Origin: a virus
DNA: 64,000 nt
Virus record (IMG/VR): IMGVR_UViG_3300025727_000782
Coordinates: 1-64,000 of that record
Direction: 5' to 3' (one strand)
The notes beneath the pieces are model-generated. The model saw only the letters and a program-made list of their open reading frames with translations, was not told where the DNA came from and did no database searches. The translations under genes and the position numbers were made by a program. Positions 1 to 8,614 of this stretch are shown here, one piece after another. The stretch's first letter is position 1. Each line of letters begins with the position of its first letter.

Positions 1-414
1 AATGCCAATGTATTGATGCCAGGTTATGGTAAAGTATGGTATGGTGATTTAAATCTTACTGAAGATTATTTAGTATTGAGAGAAATTGCTCAAAATTTAA
101 ATACAGATTTATATGTGTTGTGGGAAAGTGATGGACGATTTGGAGATGAGAATAAACCATTTGATGAGTTGATTAAAAAGGCAGTATGGAATACGGATGA
201 ACTTAAACCAACTAAAGAATGGTATAAAAAGAAACGGGAAACTAAGTAATGGCCCGAGATATATTTGGAAATAAAAGAAAACTTCGTAAAGAAAAAGATT
301 TTAGTTATCAAACATCCGAGTGGGATGTTACTAAAGAGAAAATAAAAATAGTAATACTATTAGCTGTATCTGCAGTTTTTATGTATTACATAATATTAGG
401 ACAAGGATAATATA

Positions 415-684
415 ATGGCAAGACCAAGAGGACGAGACGCAAGACCGAAATTAGAACCAATCAGAAGGAAGTGTTCTACTTGTGGTAAAGTAAAAGTAGT
501 TAAACATAGGAGTTGGAATGTACCAGCTGCTAGTTCAGAATTTAATATACCAACATATAATAAAAACGCTGAACATAAAAATAGAGAAGACCGTGCTGGC
601 GTAGAGGTTAGAAACTATTGTAGTATTGAATGTTCTGGAGATAGTTTTTTAAACAAGTATACAGAAGAAGACTTTGACAGATAA
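415..684 (+). CDS. Small hypothetical protein, possible zinc-binding (CxxC ... CxxxC)
   Basis: 89-aa ORF with CSTC and YCSIEC motifs; AAGGA upstream. Confidence 0.5.
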   Translation: MARPRGRDARPKLEPIRRKCSTCGKVKVVKHRSWNVPAASSEFNIPTYNKNAEHKNREDRAGVEVRNYCSIECSGDSFLNKYTEEDFDR

Positions 685-871
685 TGCAAAGAAATCAATC
701 TTTAGAGATGCCGGCGGAGCAGGAAAAGGAGATAGACCAAGAAGTTATTCCACAAAGGAGTGGGGTGATAGGTGGGATAAAATTTTTGGTAACAAGGAAG
801 AAGTGGCACGAGAAGAATCTGGGTCAATACATCCATCAAAGACTGAACGAGGAAAATCTAACGATGAATGA
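674..871 (+). CDS. Small conserved-looking phage hypothetical protein (GKGDRPR motif)
   Basis: ORF track; GAGKGDRPR...WDKIF pattern resembles small marine phage proteins. Confidence 0.45.
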   Translation: MTDNAKKSIFRDAGGAGKGDRPRSYSTKEWGDRWDKIFGNKEEVAREESGSIHPSKTERGKSNDE

Positions 872-968
872 TTTGGATGAAGATACAATTAATTTTTTCT
901 TTCAACAATTTAAAATTGATAAAAATATGAAGATGAAACAGACAACGAAGGGTAAAGTGAAATAGGTT

Positions 969-1271
969 ATGTTAAGACCGATAGGTGCAAGAGTAGTAGT
1001 TGAACACAGAGAACGACAAGAAAAAACAGAGAGTGGAATTATAATACCAGATACAGCAAGAGAAGATGGATTACCAGACATAGGAACAATAGTTGCATGT
1101 GGTAAGGGTTCGGTAAGTCATATGACAGGAGAAAGAATACCAATGGAAGTTAGTGTTGGTGATGATATTTACTATGGTAGATTTCAGGCACAAGAACTTG
1201 AGTATAAAGGTAAGAAATATTTGATACTTGGTGAACAAGATATTATAGCAGTGATAGAGGAAGAGGAGTAG
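969..1271 (+). CDS. groES: Co-chaperonin GroES (Cpn10)
   Basis: LRPIGARVVV, KTESGIIIPDTA mobile loop, VSVGDDIYY, YLILGEQDIIAVI. Confidence 0.95.
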   Translation: MLRPIGARVVVEHRERQEKTESGIIIPDTAREDGLPDIGTIVACGKGSVSHMTGERIPMEVSVGDDIYYGRFQAQELEYKGKKYLILGEQDIIAVIEEEE

Positions 1272-1328
1272 AGATGGTTGAAATGACAGTTTTTATGGGT
1301 GTAGTAATAATATTCCACTTGTTTATTA

Positions 1329-1496
1329 ATGGATAAAGATTTAACAAAAAAATCTGATTTTGAATCAATAGAAAAATTCATAACAGATGTTAAGAGTATT
1401 GATATATTAAAAAGAGAGTTAGCTAAAACACCGATTGATTATGATAACATCGGGCCAATACCAAAAAAAAGATTTGAAAGAAAAACTAAAAAATGA
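1329..1496 (+). CDS. Hypothetical protein (55 aa), ATGA-coupled to the ORF at 1493
   Basis: Read by hand: MDKDLTKKSDFESIEKF...RKTKK*; its TGA overlaps the next ATG. Confidence 0.5.
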   Translation: MDKDLTKKSDFESIEKFITDVKSIDILKRELAKTPIDYDNIGPIPKKRFERKTKK

Positions 1497-1624
1497 TTTC
1501 TAAAGATAATTTAAAAAACAAATTAGAAAAATTGGAGTTGTTAATTGATAAGACTCAACCTGATGAATCAGATAAAGAACAATTATTTCAACAACATCAA
1601 ATAGATAATTGTGATAACGGTTAG
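1493..1624 (+). pseudogene. 5' part (42 codons) of a resident phage gene interrupted by the cassette array
   Basis: ATG 1493 reads MISKDNLKNKLEKLELL...QIDNCDN; the AAC at 1616-1618 is in frame and joins in frame to ATT at 4614. Confidence 0.7.
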
Positions 1625-1750
1625 TATATGAGTAGTGGCAGATAGAAAGCACCTACTTATCGTAAAGCAAAAAGTGAATAGATAAACAGAAACTTAAAAT
1701 TAAACAATAACCTGCCATTACTTATATACATTGTTATATACTGTATTGGC
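1612..1750. repeat. attC-like site 1
   Basis: TGATAAC-ggtta-GTATATGAGTAGTGGCAG (1624-1641) ... CTGCCATTACTTATATAC (1712-1729)-att-GTTATATACTGTATTGGC; 18-bp stem with two G.T pairs on the + strand. Confidence 0.8.
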
Positions 1751-1769
1751 GACTTAAAAAGCACAGACC

Positions 1770-2360
1770 TTGAAAAAATACAATATAATTTATGCAGACC
1801 CTGCTTGGAAGTTTGGAAGTAGATTAGCGAATGGAAATGATAAAAACGGAATAGTAAATTTAAAGCAAGTTAAAATTGGTGATAATTATACCGTAATGAC
1901 AACCGATGAAATTTGCAAAATGCCTGTAAAAAATATGACTGCTGATGATGCTATTCTTTTTTTATGGACAACCGATGCTCACTTGGAAGAAGCAATGAAA
2001 GTAATAAACGCTTGGGGTTTTAAATATAAAACGATTGGTTTTACTTGGTTAAAAAAAGAAAAAAGTGGTGTTCAAAGTTGCTATGTAGGTTTTTGGACGA
2101 CTAAATGTGGCGAAATATGTCTATTAGCAACAAAAGGCAAAATGAGTAAATATTTAAAAAAACGAAATGTAAGGCAATTAGTAGAAGCGGTAAGAGGTAG
2201 GCATTCTGAAAAACCAAACGAAGTAAGAAAAAGAATAGTTGAAATGTTTGGAAATGATATTCCAAAAACAGAACTATTTGCAAGAGAAAATTTTGACGGT
2301 TGGGATGCGTGGGGCAATGAAGTTGAAGACAGTATAGACCTAAGCCAATATTGTATATAA
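1770..2360 (+). CDS. MT-A70 family N6-adenine methyltransferase
   Basis: IIYADPAW (DPPW-like motif IV), LFLWTT, AWGFKYKT, HSEKP, ELFAR, GWDAWGNE; TTG start uncertain. Confidence 0.9.
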   Translation: MKKYNIIYADPAWKFGSRLANGNDKNGIVNLKQVKIGDNYTVMTTDEICKMPVKNMTADDAILFLWTTDAHLEEAMKVINAWGFKYKTIGFTWLKKEKSGVQSCYVGFWTTKCGEICLLATKGKMSKYLKKRNVRQLVEAVRGRHSEKPNEVRKRIVEMFGNDIPKTELFARENFDGWDAWGNEVEDSIDLSQYCI

Positions 2361-2497
2361 CGGAATGCAAATAAGAACAGTAAAATTATGAAAGAAAAAA
2401 TATTAAAAATAGCTGACAAATTACGCAACAATGAAATAACAACAGAGGATGCAGAAACCCTTTTATTGTTTTTATTTGGTGTTGTACACTGTATTGC
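2344..2497. repeat. attC-like site 2
   Basis: GCCAATATTGTATATAAC-ggaatg-CAAATAAGAACAGTAAAA (2368-2385) ... TTTTATTGTTTTTATTTG (2461-2478)-gt-GTTGTACACTGTATTGC; two G.T pairs on the + strand. Confidence 0.8.
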
Positions 2498-2507
2498 GAT
2501 TAAATAA
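2388..2507 (+). CDS. 39-aa ORF encoded inside attC-like site 2
   Basis: MKEKILKIADKLRNNEITTEDAETLLLFLFGVVHCIAIK*, starts in the hairpin loop after an A-rich leader and reads through the GTT at 2481. Confidence 0.45.
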   Translation: MKEKILKIADKLRNNEITTEDAETLLLFLFGVVHCIAIK

Positions 2508-2524
2508 ACTAAAACTTTAATTAA

Positions 2525-3568
2525 ATGACGAAACATAGTAATAATATTTTTTTGAGCGATGGCAAAATGGCTGACGATAGGAAGACAAATAACCTATTGT
2601 GGTTTGGTAACTGCTTGGAAGAAATGAAACGAATACCAAGTAAAAGTATTGACCTTATTTGTTGTGATTTACCTTATGGAACGACTGCTTGTAGTTGGGA
2701 TACAATAATACCATTTGAAAAACTTTGGAAAGAGTACAAGCGAATTATAAAAGATAAAGGTGTTATAGTATTATTTGGTTCTGAACCATTCTCTACGCTT
2801 TTAAGAGCAAGTAATTTGGATTGGTATAAATACGATTGGATTTGGGAAAAGAATAATGCAGGAAACTTTCAATTGGTAAATTACCAACCTTTAAAAGTAC
2901 ACGAAAATATTTCTGTATTTTACAATGAAACACCTAATCTTCAATTTTCTGAAATTATGAAAAGCAATATGGAACGACTTAACTTAAAACAAATTGACGT
3001 TTCAAGATTGCAATTATCTAAAAATGGGAACATAACAGGCTGGGTCGCAAATAAATTAAATGGTTCACAACTACCAACAAAAGAGCAATGGTTTAAAATA
3101 TGTGATTTATTTGGAATAGAGGATAATTATAATGAAATACTAAACTCTGTAAAAAGTGTTACTTACAACTTGGATTTACAAGATACAGATATTAAATGTA
3201 GTAATAAGGGGAAAGCAGGAAGTTTAGGTCATTTATCATCTGAAAGCAAAAGAGAAACTTATAACCAAACAAAAACAGGCTATCCAAAAAGTATATTAAA
3301 ATACAATAGAGAAAATGATTACCACACAACTCAAAAACCATTAGGATTGATAAAGTTTTTTATTGAAACTTACTCCAATAAAGGGGAAGTGGTTTTAGAT
3401 AACACTTGCGGAAGTGATACAACAGGAATAGCAAGTTTTGAACTTGGTAGAAATAGCATAAGTATTGAAAACGATTTAGATATTTACAAACTTGCTAAAA
3501 AAAGAAGGGAAGAAAAAAATATTATTGCGGTTGATATGCACGAAACTTTAATTGATGCACAGACGTAG
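2525..3568 (+). CDS. Beta-class N6A/N4C DNA methyltransferase with central HTH-like insert
   Basis: DLPY motif IV N-terminal, HTTQKP, VVLDNTCGSDTTG motif I C-terminal. Confidence 0.88.
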   Translation: MTKHSNNIFLSDGKMADDRKTNNLLWFGNCLEEMKRIPSKSIDLICCDLPYGTTACSWDTIIPFEKLWKEYKRIIKDKGVIVLFGSEPFSTLLRASNLDWYKYDWIWEKNNAGNFQLVNYQPLKVHENISVFYNETPNLQFSEIMKSNMERLNLKQIDVSRLQLSKNGNITGWVANKLNGSQLPTKEQWFKICDLFGIEDNYNEILNSVKSVTYNLDLQDTDIKCSNKGKAGSLGHLSSESKRETYNQTKTGYPKSILKYNRENDYHTTQKPLGLIKFFIETYSNKGEVVLDNTCGSDTTGIASFELGRNSISIENDLDIYKLAKKRREEKNIIAVDMHETLIDAQT

Positions 3569-3646
3569 CAATATTGTGTACAACGTTAAGGGTATGGTGT
3601 CGGTTGCTTTTCGCAACTGCACCATAACCATTGTTGTGCATAGTGC
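3568..3646. repeat. attC-like site 3
   Basis: GCAATATTGTGTACAAC-gttaa-GGGTATGGTGTCGGTTGC-ttttc-GCAACTGCACCATAACC-att-GTTGTGCATAGTGC; one bulged T, one G.T, one G/A mismatch. Confidence 0.85.
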
Positions 3647-3673
3647 GGATTATTAACAGAAAAACTAAATAGA

Positions 3674-4600
3674 ATGAAATTATACAAAGGAGATTGCTTG
3701 ATAGAAAGTGATAAAATAGAAAGTGGAAGCGTTGATTTAATATTAACTGATTTGCCTTATGGAACGGTTAAAGATATTAAAAATGTAAATCATGGAATGA
3801 GTGGAAAATGTGATTGGGATGTTGTAATTGACACAAACGAAATTTATAAAATAGCAAATAGAATATTGAGAAAGGATGGTAAAATCATTTTGTTTGCTCA
3901 ACAACCATTTACAAATGAATTAATAAATAAAGCTATTGAAAATATACCTTTTAATTATAGTATGATTTGGGAAAAAGACCACTTTGCAAATGCTTTGACT
4001 GCTAAGAAAGCACCTCTAAATTACTATGAAGATGTTTTAGTTTTTAGTAAAGACTATGAAAAGGGAAAAAATATAAAACCAACAAATCCTGTTTATGATT
4101 ATCTAAAAGGTTGCAAAATTGAAAGCGGAATAACTACAACTGAATTTAATTATAAATATTGTGAGTATTCAGGCAAAGAAAAAAACAAGCATAGAAGTTT
4201 GGTTGCAAGATATTGGGAAACATCACAATTTTTAGTACCTACAAAAGAAATATATGAAAACGTTTTGCAACCCACTGGATTTTTTAAATTACCTTATGAA
4301 GAAATGATAAAAATGAATACTTATAAAGGTTCTATTTTTAATTTATGGGAAGGTAAAAAATACAAAAGCAATATTTTAAAATACAAAAAAGATTATGATG
4401 GACACCACCCGACACAAAAGCCTATTTTATTGTTAGAAGATTTGATTAAAACCTTTAGTAATGAAAATGATTTAGTAGTGGATTTAACTATGGGTAGTGG
4501 AAGTACTGGTGTAGCTTGTAAAAACACCAATAGAGATTTTATAGGTATTGAGATGAATGATGAATACTATTATATTGCTTGTAAAAGAGTAGGATTGTAG
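3674..4600 (+). CDS. Beta-class N6A/N4C DNA methyltransferase
   Basis: ILTDLPY, HPTQKP, VVDLTMGSGSTG, FIGIE. Confidence 0.92.
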   Translation: MKLYKGDCLIESDKIESGSVDLILTDLPYGTVKDIKNVNHGMSGKCDWDVVIDTNEIYKIANRILRKDGKIILFAQQPFTNELINKAIENIPFNYSMIWEKDHFANALTAKKAPLNYYEDVLVFSKDYEKGKNIKPTNPVYDYLKGCKIESGITTTEFNYKYCEYSGKEKNKHRSLVARYWETSQFLVPTKEIYENVLQPTGFFKLPYEEMIKMNTYKGSIFNLWEGKKYKSNILKYKKDYDGHHPTQKPILLLEDLIKTFSNENDLVVDLTMGSGSTGVACKNTNRDFIGIEMNDEYYYIACKRVGL

Positions 4601-4604
4601 TATT

Positions 4605-4946
4605 ATGCACAACATTAGATATGTTGATAATTTAAAGAATCAGCTGAATTTAACTTTAGATGAAAGAGAACATTTAATTTACATCATGAGAACTTCAAAC
4701 AAAGTTTGGAAGATGAGAAATAAAATGTTAGATGGAGATTGGAACTTAGAAGATGTTAAGTTAGATGATATGGAAAAAGAATTAAGAACTCTTTTACCTA
4801 ATAATAAGATAGGTGCCATTAAACATTATAGACAAGTTATGATAGACGAATTTGGAAAACAAGTTTCTCTTAGAGATTCGAAAGAACGAATAGATAATCT
4901 CTGCAGAGAAATGACTTACGAACAAGGTTTAATAATAAACCACTAA
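4605..4946 (+). CDS. 3' part of the interrupted resident gene; C-terminus resembles the ribosomal L7/L12 C-terminal fold
   Basis: ATG lies inside the cassette arm (ATG CAC AAC); KIGAIKHYRQV...SLRDSKERID resembles the KIxAIKxxRx...LxEAKxxVD pattern. Confidence 0.55.
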   Translation: MHNIRYVDNLKNQLNLTLDEREHLIYIMRTSNKVWKMRNKMLDGDWNLEDVKLDDMEKELRTLLPNNKIGAIKHYRQVMIDEFGKQVSLRDSKERIDNLCREMTYEQGLIINH

Positions 4947-4962
4947 ACAAGGAGTACAGGTT

Positions 4963-5172
4963 ATGTATTTTGAAACACAAGTAATATTTACAGAAGAAAT
5001 CCCAACAAAGAATGGAGTACGAGAAAAGAAAACTCGTAGAGCATTTTTAGTTGAGTGTGATTCGGTAAGTGTAGCAGAGTCAAAGGTAAATGGATTGTTA
5101 AAAGATTCACCATATCCCTTTGAAGTTAAAGTAGCAAAAGAATCTAAGATTGTAGAGGTAATTGATGCCTAA
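4963..5172 (+). CDS. DUF4494-like small protein
   Basis: MYFETQV...KKTRRAFLVECDSVSVAESKV...ESKIVEV resembles DUF4494; AGGAG upstream. Confidence 0.55.
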   Translation: MYFETQVIFTEEIPTKNGVREKKTRRAFLVECDSVSVAESKVNGLLKDSPYPFEVKVAKESKIVEVIDA

Positions 5173-5367
5173 TTTAACATGGTTTTATTTCCATGTAGGA
5201 TTAGCACTGATAATAATAATAACTGATGCTAATGGAACATTAGAACCAGCGGTGAATAAATTTGAACAGAAGATTGGGTTATATACACCACCTGATACTA
5301 TTGATTCAACACCACCTTATTATATTGAACCAATAGAATCAGATTCAACAGACTGGAGAGTTTAGGT

Positions 5368-5586
5368 ATGGAGCATAAAATAGATGATTATAATAAAGGT
5401 TATTTAATTGGACTAATAATAGTAGCAGTTATTGGTGTTGCATTATTTTTCATACCATTTTGGGCCCTTTGGAATTGGCTAATGCCTTTATTTGGAGTAC
5501 CTAAAATAACACTTTTACAGAGTGTTGGGTTATATTTATTATTACGAATTATTTTCTTTCAGACTAATTATACTAACAAACAATAA
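5368..5586 (+). CDS. Small membrane protein
   Basis: Two hydrophobic segments, LWNWLMPLFGVPKITLLQ motif common in phage membrane proteins. Confidence 0.6.
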   Translation: MEHKIDDYNKGYLIGLIIVAVIGVALFFIPFWALWNWLMPLFGVPKITLLQSVGLYLLLRIIFFQTNYTNKQ

Positions 5587-5596
5587 GGAAAACTTT

Positions 5597-5764
5597 ATGG
5601 GCATTAGTATGGTGGAGATTAAAGAAAAATTAGAAAAAGCGTATAACGATGAAAATTGGAGTATCATAGAAGAGTTGTTAGAAACCTTATCATATGAGAT
5701 TGAAAATGGTGAAGGTTTATTTGAACAATATAAAGATGATGAAGAAGAAGATTTATGGGGCTGA
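5597..5764 (+). CDS. Small acidic hypothetical protein; stop codon overlaps tmRNA 5' end
   Basis: AAGGA RBS then ATG 5597 in frame with track ORF 5522..5764. Confidence 0.5.
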   Translation: MGISMVEIKEKLEKAYNDENWSIIEELLETLSYEIENGEGLFEQYKDDEEEDLWG

Positions 5765-6164
5765 CATGGAGATCGACTGGTGTTATTCGATACTAAAGTG
5801 CAGCAGAGTTTGAGTAGACTCTTAAATAAGACTCAACGAAACCTAAATGGCGATACATCGCTACAAGGGTTGGACATTGATTGGCATCTAGCCAATGCTG
5901 AAATGGGATTCGACAATTTTGTTGCTCCTGTTCAGAATGACCAACCAACTTACGCTTACGCATAAGTTACTGAGTTGTCTAACACTCGGTCATAAAATAA
6001 GTTAGACAAACAACTCTCGCATATGAGTATAAAGATGCACGGAGCTATCCAAAAAAATAGTCGGTGGTTTGTAGGTAACTTCTCGGAGGGTAGTAACCTA
6101 ATAAGCTGTAAATGACTTTGTAAAGAAATCATACAGGACGGGAGTTCGATTCTCCCCAGCTCCA
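5757..6164 (+). ncRNA. ssrA: tmRNA (transfer-messenger RNA)
   Basis: 5' GGGGCTGACATGGAGATCGAC; 3' GACGGGAGTTCGATTCTCCCCAGCTCCA with T-arm; acceptor stem GGGGCTG/CAGCTCC with G3.U alanine determinant and A discriminator; internal tag ORF ending YAYA-stop; CCA not encoded (followed by CAA). Confidence 0.93.
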
Positions 6165-6440
6165 CAACTAAGAGGAAATGAATGAAAAAAATAAGACATG
6201 GTAAATTACCAATTACATTAGAAAGTTCAGATGAATTAACACCTGATTTATTAGAAACAATACAATTGAATTTGATGTATGATAAAAAGAGAAAAGATAA
6301 TCACACTGGATGGGAATCCTGGAAAGATGAATATGGAAATTGGGTTAACCCGTACAAAGCGGATAAAAACCAATTAGAACTTTTCGAGAAAATAAAATGA
6401 TAAAAAAATTGATTTTAACAATGATAGGAGATATTTATCT

Positions 6441-7007
6441 ATGAGTGAATATGATACTTCATATTTGAATAAAATTATGAAGAATATAAAAATATATTTT
6501 GGAGTTGGAATAATAATGATATTATTTTTCAACACCTTTGTATGGACAGAGCTGTTTGAAAATTATAAAGATTTCCATAAGCAAACGCTTGTGGAATTGA
6601 GAGATGAGAATAGTAAACTCAAGAACATAGTTCAAGAGTTTAAACTGGAGGGATTGAATGTTACTGTTACAATGTATCATCCAGTTTCGTATCAAACTGA
6701 TTCTACACCGAACATTCTCGCGGATGGAACGCGCATAAGGGTAAATAAAGCTAGTGAATACCGATACATAGCGGTGAGTAGAAATCTTTTGACACGATAT
6801 GGTGGATGGTTAAATTACGGTGATTTCATTTATCTCAAAGGAACATCAGGTAAAGATGGTATGTACCAAGTACGCGACACAATGAACGCAAGATTTGTAA
6901 ATCGTATAGACATCTTGGAATCGCCAGGTACACCACCATATAAATACACCGATGCTCAAATTATGAAACACTCTATAGAGTTAGTTAGTGGAGATCGAGA
7001 TAGTTAA
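6441..7007 (+). CDS. Membrane-anchored 3D-domain (MltA-like peptidoglycan-acting) protein
   Basis: N-terminal TM and coiled coil; VTVTMY..QTDSTP..ADG, IAVSRNLL, VRDTM..RIDIL. Confidence 0.8.
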   Translation: MSEYDTSYLNKIMKNIKIYFGVGIIMILFFNTFVWTELFENYKDFHKQTLVELRDENSKLKNIVQEFKLEGLNVTVTMYHPVSYQTDSTPNILADGTRIRVNKASEYRYIAVSRNLLTRYGGWLNYGDFIYLKGTSGKDGMYQVRDTMNARFVNRIDILESPGTPPYKYTDAQIMKHSIELVSGDRDS

Positions 7008-7015
7008 AATAAAGC

Positions 7016-7045
7016 TTGACTTTTATATAAAAAAAGTCGTATATT
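7016..7045 (+). promoter_or_regulatory. Sigma70-type promoter with overlapping inverted repeat
   Basis: TTGACT (7016-7021), 18 nt, TATATT (7040-7045); GACTTTT...AAAAGTC palindrome 7018-7038. Confidence 0.55.
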
Positions 7046-7072
7046 TAAACAATGAAAAATACAGGTTATTAA

Positions 7073-8614
7073 TTGAAATCGTGTTATGAAAAATCAAATA
7101 TAGCGGATAAGACCAATCCTATTAATATCACATATGATGAATTGCTACACAAAAGTGATTCAGAGATTGATACATGGATTGATGAACTTCGTACATATGT
7201 TATAACTCAATGGGATGAAAATGGCCAACCTCCAGTCATAGGACAAAATGAGGATACCATTATTTCTAATTGGAAAAAACTTTTTGGTTACGATGTTAAA
7301 TCATTCTATACAGAAGATTTAAAAGTAATTAAGAACTTCAATAAATTTGCTTCGGCAGTAAATCAATTCTTTCCAACAATGTTAAAAACAAAAATATCAA
7401 GTGGAGTTAGTAGTGAAGGTGCTACATCTATATATGATATGTTTAAAGAAGATGATTTACGAGATACTTTTAAAAAGGCTATGTTGAGAGCTTTGTATAA
7501 AGATTCAATGTATAGTTTTAGTAAAAGTATTTTAAAGGATGAAGTGGATAGGAATGTAGGTGAGTATTTAAATTATTGGAATAATAATGATAAGTATGGA
7601 ATCACCGTTATACGACAAACCGATAAAACTCCTGTAGATATAAATTCAAAGTATTTGTTATTAAAGGGTAGTGAAGTACAAATGTATTTAACGAGTGGAA
7701 ACTTAACCGAACAGAATGTTCGCACAATAAGTGGTGAGTTAGATAATAGTATTACATTAAAGAATGGTGAGTTACGATATTACCATTACTATATAAGAAA
7801 GTATAAAAGAAGTCATAAGTTATTTCCTACAGCATTACAAATCTTTAGATTATCATTAGGACAACCCGCGGTTAACTTTCCTGCATTAACTGCTAAATTC
7901 TTATATGAACATTTTACAGAACATATTAAAGATGAGAAGATTACAGTATATGATTGTTCATCAGGATGGGGTGGAAGAATATTAGGTGCTATGAGTACCG
8001 ATAGAGATTTACATTATGTAGGAACTGATCCCAATCCAGATAACATTGGACGATATGAGAGAGTAGCTGAATACTACAATACTCATTGTTTCCAAAGTAA
8101 TCCATTTTGGGGGAGAGACAAGCCAAACACTTACGAAGTTTTCCAAGATGGTAGTGAGGTTATATGTGATAACCCTAAGTTTGATAAATATAAAAATTCG
8201 TTAGACTTTGTTTTCACAAGTCCACCTTACTTTAACCGAGAACAATACTCACAAGACGAAAATCAATCGTTCAAGAAATTTTCGGCGTACGAAGATTGGC
8301 GTGATAACTTTTTAAAACCTACTTTGACAACGGCGTATACTAATCTAAAAAACGATAGGTTTCTTTGTTGGAACATTGCGGACATCAAGATAGGTGAAGA
8401 CAAATACATTCCATTAGAACAAGATTCAATTGATATTGTTAAATCACTTGGTGGTGAGTATCAAGGAATATATAAAATGTTGATGACACGAATGGTAGGA
8501 ATCGATACATCAAAAATAAAGAATTCAGTACAAGTAAAGCATCATCCATTACAACGAGGTGGAGATGTTTTTAAATTTGAACCAATATTAGTATTTTATA
8601 AAGGAAAATTATGA
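7073..8614 (+). CDS. Large phage DNA amino-methyltransferase (motif I before motif IV, SPPY)
   Basis: VYDCSSGWGGRILG (motif I), YVGTDPN, VFTSPPYF (motif IV). Confidence 0.85.
   Translation: MKSCYEKSNIADKTNPINITYDELLHKSDSEIDTWIDELRTYVITQWDENGQPPVIGQNEDTIISNWKKLFGYDVKSFYTEDLKVIKNFNKFASAVNQFFPTMLKTKISSGVSSEGATSIYDMFKEDDLRDTFKKAMLRALYKDSMYSFSKSILKDEVDRNVGEYLNYWNNNDKYGITVIRQTDKTPVDINSKYLLLKGSEVQMYLTSGNLTEQNVRTISGELDNSITLKNGELRYYHYYIRKYKRSHKLFPTALQIFRLSLGQPAVNFPALTAKFLYEHFTEHIKDEKITVYDCSSGWGGRILGAMSTDRDLHYVGTDPNPDNIGRYERVAEYYNTHCFQSNPFWGRDKPNTYEVFQDGSEVICDNPKFDKYKNSLDFVFTSPPYFNREQYSQDENQSFKKFSAYEDWRDNFLKPTLTTAYTNLKNDRFLCWNIADIKIGEDKYIPLEQDSIDIVKSLGGEYQGIYKMLMTRMVGIDTSKIKNSVQVKHHPLQRGGDVFKFEPILVFYKGKL

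Follow-up and report, generated by a model that had tools for sequence, protein, structure and literature searches.

In a 64,000-nucleotide (nt) stretch of viral DNA, positions 1 to 64,000 of the 77-kb IMG/VR record IMGVR_UViG_3300025727_000782, a conserved phage gene of 152 amino acids (aa) is split by an array of three DNA methyltransferase gene cassettes that has inserted at a single AAC triplet. We call this whole stretch the window and use its coordinates throughout. An earlier note, made from the sequence alone, had proposed that the array splits a resident phage gene and that its excision would restore a 152-aa open reading frame (ORF). The positions on which that proposal was built (1493, 1613–1618, 4605 and the division into 42 + 110 codons) all agree with the sequence. 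The ATG at 1493 overlaps the TGA of the upstream gene (ATGA), and the frame that it opens reaches GAT AAC at 1613–1618, runs into the insert and stops at a TAG at 1622–1624. On the far side of the insert, ATG CAC AAC occupies 4605–4613 and is followed by the ATT at 4614, where the frame of the resident gene resumes. Intact homologues, which read across the junction, confirm that 1493–1618 and 4614–4946 are the two halves of one gene.

The frames of the two halves would match by chance one time in three, a reason for which the earlier note had called for homologue support, and this support is strong. With the C-terminal 110 residues as a query, 60 proteins were retrieved, most of them 149–154 aa long and carrying the N-terminal half too; about 50 metagenomic homologues of 149–154 aa read straight across the junction. 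One intact homologue (P0003) reads HQIDNCDN followed directly by IRYVDNLKNQLNL, the same as the predicted joined form. At the DNA level, the gene was found in 2 IMG/VR contigs (L002 and L003) and 15 metagenome contigs (L006–L020), and all 17 of these related loci carry the joined, uninterrupted gene. The exact empty junction that had been predicted, GATAATTGTGATAAC followed directly by ATTAGATATGTTG, is present in six collinear contigs (L002, L003 and L006–L009), in which the DNA reads TGT GAT AAC ATT AGA TAT GTT with no insert. To the left and right of the site, these six contigs align collinearly with the window, with 88–98% identity, and the 3-kb block is absent. Distant homologues of the resident gene (around 60% identity) are likewise uninterrupted, indicating that the intact form is ancestral. 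The split form is known only from the window and from P0001, a 113-aa protein with the same MHNIRYV start that is 96% identical and is encoded on a separate European Nucleotide Archive (ENA) contig and assembly. Searches of GenBank phages by tblastn with either half of the gene gave no match.

The filled form is also found in independent samples. Nine public marine runs hold most of window 1000–5400 and, in three runs other than the likely source, contigs bridge the filled junctions with zero differences (Table 1), showing that the insertion is not an assembly artefact. No joint of 1618 to 4614 was present in the contigs of four runs; because contigs drop rare variants, this has no bearing on excision.

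Comparison of filled and empty sites fixes the crossover to within the shared AAC: the insert can be any of the intervals from 1616–4610 to 1619–4613, and beyond this AAC there is no duplication at the junctions. Taken as 1619–4613, the insert is 2,995 bp long and consists of three units, each with one methyltransferase gene. Each gene is flanked by a perfectly complementary pair of 9-nt boxes, one beginning with GTT and the other ending with AAC, and an imperfect hairpin lies between every AAC box and the following GTT box. The first hairpin comes right after the target AAC and the AAC box of cassette 3 comes right before the target ATT. Because the array starts with a hairpin and ends with an AAC box, the unit is a spacer, a hairpin, a GTT box, a gene and an AAC box, in this order. 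Hairpin 3 folds with −17.9 kcal/mol on the + strand (z −5.5) versus −12.6 kcal/mol on the − strand, and hairpin 1 with −10.1 versus −8.3 kcal/mol. The better folding of the + strand is due to G–T wobbles, which consistently favour the gene-sense strand across the hairpins.

Table 1. Parts of the split gene and of the inserted array, with the contigs from independent runs that bridge the filled junctions (window coordinates)
Feature	Position	Strand	Details
Resident gene, 5′ fragment (42 codons)	1493–1618	+	Same register as residues 1–42 of intact homologues P0002–P0006
Left AAC triplet, crossover core common to target and cassette end	1616–1618	+	Single AAC at the empty site of L002, L003 and L006–L009
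Cassette 1	1619–2361	+	MT-A70 DNA methyltransferase, 1770–2360
Cassette 1, hairpin and GTT box			Spacer GGTTA; arms 1624–1641 and 1712–1729; ATT; GTT box 1733–1741, GTTATATAC
Cassette 1, AAC box	2353–2361		GTATATAAC; contains the methyltransferase stop codon
Cassette 2	2362–3584	+	N6_N4 (N6_N4_Mtase) DNA methyltransferase, 2525–3568
Cassette 2, hairpin and boxes			Long hairpin; arms 2368–2385 and 2461–2478; GTT box 2481–2489, GTTGTACAC; AAC box 3576–3584, GTGTACAAC
Cassette 3	3585–4613	+	N6_N4 (N6_N4_Mtase) DNA methyltransferase, 3674–4600
Cassette 3, hairpin and boxes			Spacer GTTAA; arms 3590–3607 and 3613–3629; ATT; GTT box 3633–3641, GTTGTGCAT; AAC box 4605–4613, ATGCACAAC
Resident gene, 3′ fragment (110 codons and stop)	4614–4946	+	P0001 is the same 113-aa form in a second assembly
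Bridging contigs, run X8 (2012)	1461–3931 and 4439–5031
Bridging contig, run X9 (2017)	4551–5039
Bridging contig, run X10 (2019)	1534–1758

If the mobile unit is a hairpin together with the gene downstream of it, as the earlier note had defined it, such units should recur with the same ends, and they do so in other viral contigs. In L043, an MT-A70 gene 91% identical to that of cassette 1 is accompanied by a shortened hairpin 1, which has the same GGTTAGTATATGAG start, as a single cassette placed between GTGTAAC and AACCGTATATCG; it begins with GG, has the box pair GTTAGGTGT/ACACCTAAC and shows the right junction ACACCTAAC followed by AACC. L023 combines a hairpin that is 85% identical to hairpin 3 with a methyltransferase 3 homologue (68% aa identity) and the same boxes, the unit starting right after a terminator that ends in TTATTAAC and ending in ATGCACAAC followed by TGA. 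Both units thus begin right after a flanking AAC and finish in an AAC of their own. A cassette 2-type unit in L123, with a methyltransferase 2 homologue (91–92% aa identity), the same boxes and a different hairpin, comes after a Dam gene ending in GGCTAAC. Two further contigs, L045 and L047, carry different arrays that both end at the same base of the right flank also found in L043. This common flank (AACCGTATATCGTTATTAACGATAT onwards; from 2754 in L043, 1835 in L045 and about 2105 in L047), next to three different arrays, marks a second natural insertion hotspot. The empty site predicted for the L043 cassette had no match in an exact-pattern search of the viral contigs.

The ends of the units covary. 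Perfect 8-nt GTT/AAC pairs surround related methyltransferase genes in 19 of 158 locus–query combinations, versus 1 in a displaced control, and the methyltransferase loci comprise eight distinct, perfectly complementary box pairs; that eight different sequences are each matched by their complement means that the boxes covary. Across 14 aligned short sites, compensatory changes occur in 4 of 6 consensus stem pairs. All 18 collected sites have the order AAC, hairpin, GTT; they are 56–137 nt long, with spacers of 2–5 nt on the 5′ side and 2–3 nt on the 3′ side. They have the layout of integron attC sites: two inverted-repeat pairs, the outer R boxes and the inner L boxes, with AAC/GTT triplets, about 57–141 nt in length, with an unpaired spacer between R and L boxes. 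Rfam contains no attC family. Two loose hairpin scanners performed about as on shuffled sequence (29 versus 8–29 hits and 3,258 versus 1,907 hits), giving no evidence of further sites in the window, and one scan of genome contigs returned a single contig of a metagenome-assembled genome, with no cassette ends.

Several observations concern individual hairpins and genes of these arrays. The 75-nt loop of hairpin 2 holds a 39-aa ORF (2388–2507, + strand) that crosses the 3′ arm and the GTT box and has no family match; a parallel exists in Polaribacter phage P12002L, in which the 3′ part of a 96-aa ORF, gp37, forms a long inverted repeat ending in an AAC box. Many hairpins of the P12002L attC1 type (L005 4548–4558; L123 8443–8453; L053, L048 and L134) have varying stems and a common loop, CGTTTTAATG. 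Loop conservation of this kind is uncommon among attC sites, and the loop may be bound by a protein. Additionally, methyltransferase 3 (3652–4591) has 84% DNA identity to gp028 of Cellulophaga phage phi10:1 (13557–14488), which has no hairpin and no boxes; the homology ends just inside the cassette boxes, so that one gene is found in cassette form in one phage and as a regular gene in another.

Neither Pfam nor PHROG yielded a family for the resident gene itself. AlphaFold models its product as entirely helical, with a mean pLDDT of 60 and residues 90–145 alone confident; the low confidence precludes any domain argument about the split point. The 3′ half can be called as a 113-aa ORF that starts at the ATG at 4605, inside the terminal box of cassette 3 and 4 nt past the stop codon of methyltransferase 3, and this ORF retains residues 90–145. 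Reinitiation there after translation of methyltransferase 3 is possible. Judged from the sequences, the in-frame ATG would be there by chance, as part of the cassette end, and would not have been selected to rescue the resident gene, since the same ATG-bearing box, ATGCACAAC, runs straight into a TGA stop in L023 and the ATG is thus a property of the cassette.

Related arrays adjoin a tyrosine recombinase. A viral record with a methyltransferase 2-like cassette (G095) encodes a 277-aa tyrosine recombinase that is Xer-like (XerA, XerD and XerC), although below all curated cut-offs, and whose nearest counterparts among solved structures are XerA and XerD. Its matches to integron-integrase models and to IntI4 (PDB 2a3v) are confined to two stretches, which indicates an enzyme without the IntI-specific insertion. 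A co-oriented cassette array lies directly upstream, its last cassette ending in ACTGCTAAC about 50 nt before the start of the recombinase. Relatives of this recombinase are encoded in 243 viral contigs. Around some 60 of the recombinase genes, GTT/AAC box pairs are fourfold denser in the 3 kb upstream than in the 3 kb downstream (281 versus 78), and 14 of the recombinase-adjacent arrays carry methyltransferases related to those of the window. Further, 53 of 55 loci have, at most 130 nt upstream of the recombinase ATG, a sequence of the form AAC-N2–6 followed by an TATATGTA-like motif (at least 6 of 8 matches); the motif is perfect (8 of 8) in 36 and the spacing is 3 in 49. In these loci, which are among L160–L238, AAC-N3-TATATGTA stands between the last cassette and a 276–277-aa recombinase, about 60–130 nt upstream of its start. 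By analogy with attI, AAC-N3-TATATGTA is a candidate primary insertion site.

The same cassette layout of hairpin, GTT box, gene and complementary AAC box is present in the window array and upstream of the recombinase in L155. The window array ends in the resident gene, with neither a recombinase nor an AAC-N3-TATATGTA site at its end, and is thus an off-platform copy. The idea of the earlier note that the array had entered at a secondary site, outside any integration platform, is therefore upheld by the location of the array inside a phage ORF in a record that has no recombinase.

Phage arrays of this kind are not new in themselves. Qi et al. 2023 (Front Microbiol, PMC9892861) described clusters of attC sites without an integrase (CALINs) in phages, including P12002L with methyltransferase cassettes, and HattCI predicted a P12002L site that is homologous to those of the window (PMC9892861). 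In that study, IntI1 recombined P12002L_attC2 only as the bottom strand, which is the methyltransferase sense strand, with the crossover between G and TTAGGC, that is, between GCCTAA and C on the sense strand (PMC9892861); this is the cassette-end AAC, equivalent to the junction position in the window. P12002L_attC1 gave no IntI1 recombinants (PMC9892861). By comparison with the primer table of PMC9892861, P12002L_attC1 is the hairpin that we had picked out independently at L005 4525–4584, and P12002L attC2 starts at the AAC box that ends methyltransferase 3. The window array shares with the P12002L CALIN its site architecture (AAC, GG, hairpin, ATT, GTT) and its methyltransferase cargo, and both sit in virulent-type marine Flavobacteriia phages with no integrase nearby; with three attC-type sites within 3 kb, where a CALIN needs at least two, the window array belongs to the same class. 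Unlike in P12002L, filled and empty sites here give the exact boundary and the unit, and the insertion lies inside an ORF. The two P12002L sites, attC1 and attC2, were described as divergent in PMC9892861; the junctions analysed here instead point to a single, consistent orientation.

The closest experimental precedent for the insertion is the attG reaction. In the experiments of Loot et al. (bioRxiv 10.1101/2022.09.11.507474), cassettes were inserted by IntI at minimal 5′-GWT-3′ genome sites, termed attG, where they disrupted genes and from which they could be excised precisely. Here, too, the cassettes have entered at a minimal G-W-T triplet outside attI and attC (GTT on the − strand, AAC on the +), a gene is disrupted, the empty site is seen in six contigs without duplication past the AAC, and precise excision would restore the gene. 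By contrast, the reactions of Loot et al. were IntI1 laboratory assays in E. coli and Vibrio; ours is a natural event in a phage genome, in which three cassettes took part and the recombinase was probably of another family.

Classical integrons share with this system arrays of promoter-poor single-gene cassettes, imperfect hairpin sites with AAC/GTT triplets between the genes and terminal boxes that are complementary within a cassette; like integrons, the related phages have a recombinase and a conserved primary site at one array end. The window array, inside a phage ORF, has no IntI, attI or Pc and so is no complete integron; its genes share a strand with the crossover AAC and each is preceded by its site, in mirror orientation to the classical arrangement. 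The enzyme of the related phages, at 276–277 aa, is Xer-like, has no IntI-type insertion and is encoded in the same direction as the cassettes, and its primary site would be AAC-N3-TATATGTA. A Xer-family enzyme acting on a folded hairpin site in single-stranded DNA would also recall CTX phage and its kin, whose integration is Xer-dependent and uses folded single-stranded sites. In CTX-type elements, however, the whole element integrates at chromosomal dif and no gene-cassette arrays are built, and no dif-like site was identified here.

We consider it probable that the three-cassette array was inserted off-platform by a site-specific exchange of the tyrosine-recombinase type, with a Xer-like enzyme as the likeliest catalyst. 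A cassette comprises a spacer of 2–5 nt, an imperfect hairpin, a GTTnnnnnn box, a leader, the methyltransferase gene and a complementary nnnnnnAAC box; in a circular or tandem cassette, an attC-like site would arise from the AAC box together with the hairpin and GTT box that follow it. This folded site would recombine with the AAC (GTT on the other strand) inside the conserved 152-aa gene, and exchange at the AAC on the gene-sense strand would yield an inserted array that begins with a hairpin and ends in AAC. The event would be an attG-like insertion by an integron-like cassette system of phages of marine Flavobacteriia and other Bacteroidota, in which a compact Xer-like recombinase, not encoded in the 77-kb record, would act in trans, for example during co-infection. 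The cargo would be orphan methyltransferases that presumably shield phage DNA from host restriction.

Other routes to the same structure have to be weighed against this one. The most serious, which we nevertheless regard as unlikely, is that a classical IntI from a host or co-resident integron carried out a standard attC × attG insertion and that the array is a CALIN from a bacterial integron. The sites do look like attC (AAC/GTT boxes, spacers, imperfect hairpin, 56–137 nt) and the target, GTTAT on the − strand, is of the GWT type at which IntI inserts cassettes into genes (Loot et al.). P12002L_attC1, however, from which no IntI1 recombinants were obtained (PMC9892861), is the closest look-alike of the window hairpins; complete integrons are almost unknown in Bacteroidetes (IntegronFinder 2.0 survey, preprint); no IntI occurs in any record that we searched for it, with P12002L and phi10:1 giving no integron-integrase match; and the mirror orientation and the Xer-like enzyme with its own conserved site beside related arrays depart from what typical integron cassettes would lead one to expect. 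A classical integron integrase is probably not what drives the system, and adjacency makes a Xer-like enzyme acting in trans the likelier agent.

Single-strand transposition of the HUH (IS200/IS605-like) type, with the hairpins as transposon ends, would place an insert 3′ of a short target without duplication. The insertion lies immediately 3′ of AAC, nothing is duplicated and the hairpins are strand-biased, with G–T wobbles favouring the + strand, yet we judge this route highly improbable: the 77-kb record has no Y1 transposase (PF01797), each unit has one hairpin instead of the two subterminal ones of IS200/IS605 elements, the box at the right end is complementary to one where the gene of that unit begins, a covarying pair that fits an attC-type site and not insertion-sequence ends, and it is a tyrosine recombinase that accompanies the arrays of related phages. 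We give least credence to non-specific events, whether illegitimate or microhomology recombination, gene conversion by a homing endonuclease or a self-splicing intron that restores the ORF in RNA. That the junction shares just 3 nt would suit the first of these, an HNH endonuclease gene near the P12002L array the second, and the restoration of the frame on removal of the insert the third. The same AAC boundary, however, recurs at every cassette and in unrelated contexts, and no endonuclease gene lies within or next to the insert. An intron is opposed by the absence of any intron or ribozyme family match in window 1–8000 at E ≤ 1 (Rfam), group I and II families included, by the same ends in intergenic contexts and by the make-up of the insert, three complete genes each with its own ends.

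Off-platform insertion by a Xer-like enzyme has points against it as well. One such phage site, P12002L_attC2, is a substrate for IntI1, with crossover at the AAC that corresponds to the junction here (PMC9892861). Extrahelical bases are placed inconsistently: hairpin 3 and its L023 counterpart have a bulge in the 5′ arm, P12002L-type hairpins have one in the 3′ arm and hairpin 1 has none. Searches of the 77-kb record, which is only about 27% of the estimated genome, with PF00589, TIGR02249, PF01797 and PF00239 found neither a tyrosine or serine recombinase nor an integron integrase or Y1 transposase. A tyrosine recombinase is likewise missing from four viral records that carry cassettes and are at least 91% complete, and action in trans therefore has to be assumed. 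The window target, AAC ATTA GATATGTT, resembles the candidate primary site modestly, with 6 of 8 matches at spacing 4 and rank 97 among 2,439 AAC sites; AAC-N4/5-ATATGT occurs four times in the window, and we take the resemblance as a hint only. Finally, the link of the Xer-like enzyme to the cassettes is one of adjacency, not of demonstrated activity.

A broader proposal, to which we give about even odds, is that these phages harbour an undescribed, phage-centred analogue of the integron that spreads off-platform. It would combine mirror-oriented cassettes, an AAC-N3-TATATGTA primary site and a 277-aa Xer-like enzyme that drops multi-cassette blocks in trans into any suitable AAC of an enzyme-less co-infecting phage, even within genes. 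We found no literature description of a Xer-like cassette platform in Bacteroidota phages, which, with incomplete coverage, is weak evidence of absence.

The neighbourhood of the split gene has further features. A GroES/Cpn10 homologue (PF00166, E 6e-26) lies at 969–1271 on the + strand; the segment 931–1484, which contains this gene and the next small ORF, is absent from the collinear relatives L009 and L016, so this region is a mosaic even where no hairpin sites are involved. Some 800 nt beyond the split gene, on its downstream side, 5757–6167 (+ strand) is a full-length match to transfer-messenger RNA (tmRNA; Rfam RF00023, 75.5 bits versus a gathering score of 47, E 2e-28), which was not called by ARAGORN and would be a phage-encoded tmRNA. 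A 513-aa ORF at 7073–8614 (+ strand) has an SPPY motif typical of amino-methyltransferases and 97% nt identity in relatives without the array; from its sequence, it appears to be a resident methyltransferase besides the three imported ones.

Phage attC-like arrays were already published, but their route into phage genomes was left open; the study had no empty site and suggested illegitimate or homologous recombination (Qi et al. 2023, PMC9892861). What is new here is a natural pair of filled and empty sites that fixes the crossover to one AAC triplet and defines the mobile unit as a hairpin plus the gene downstream of it. The locus also shows that a block of three genes can insert into an ordinary gene of a phage at a distance from any recombinase. 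In the host phylum of these phages, integrons are almost unknown. The empty site, hairpins 1 and 3 and the AAC-N3-TATATGTA site provide concrete substrates for identifying the enzyme that would move these presumed anti-restriction genes between marine Flavobacteriia phages.

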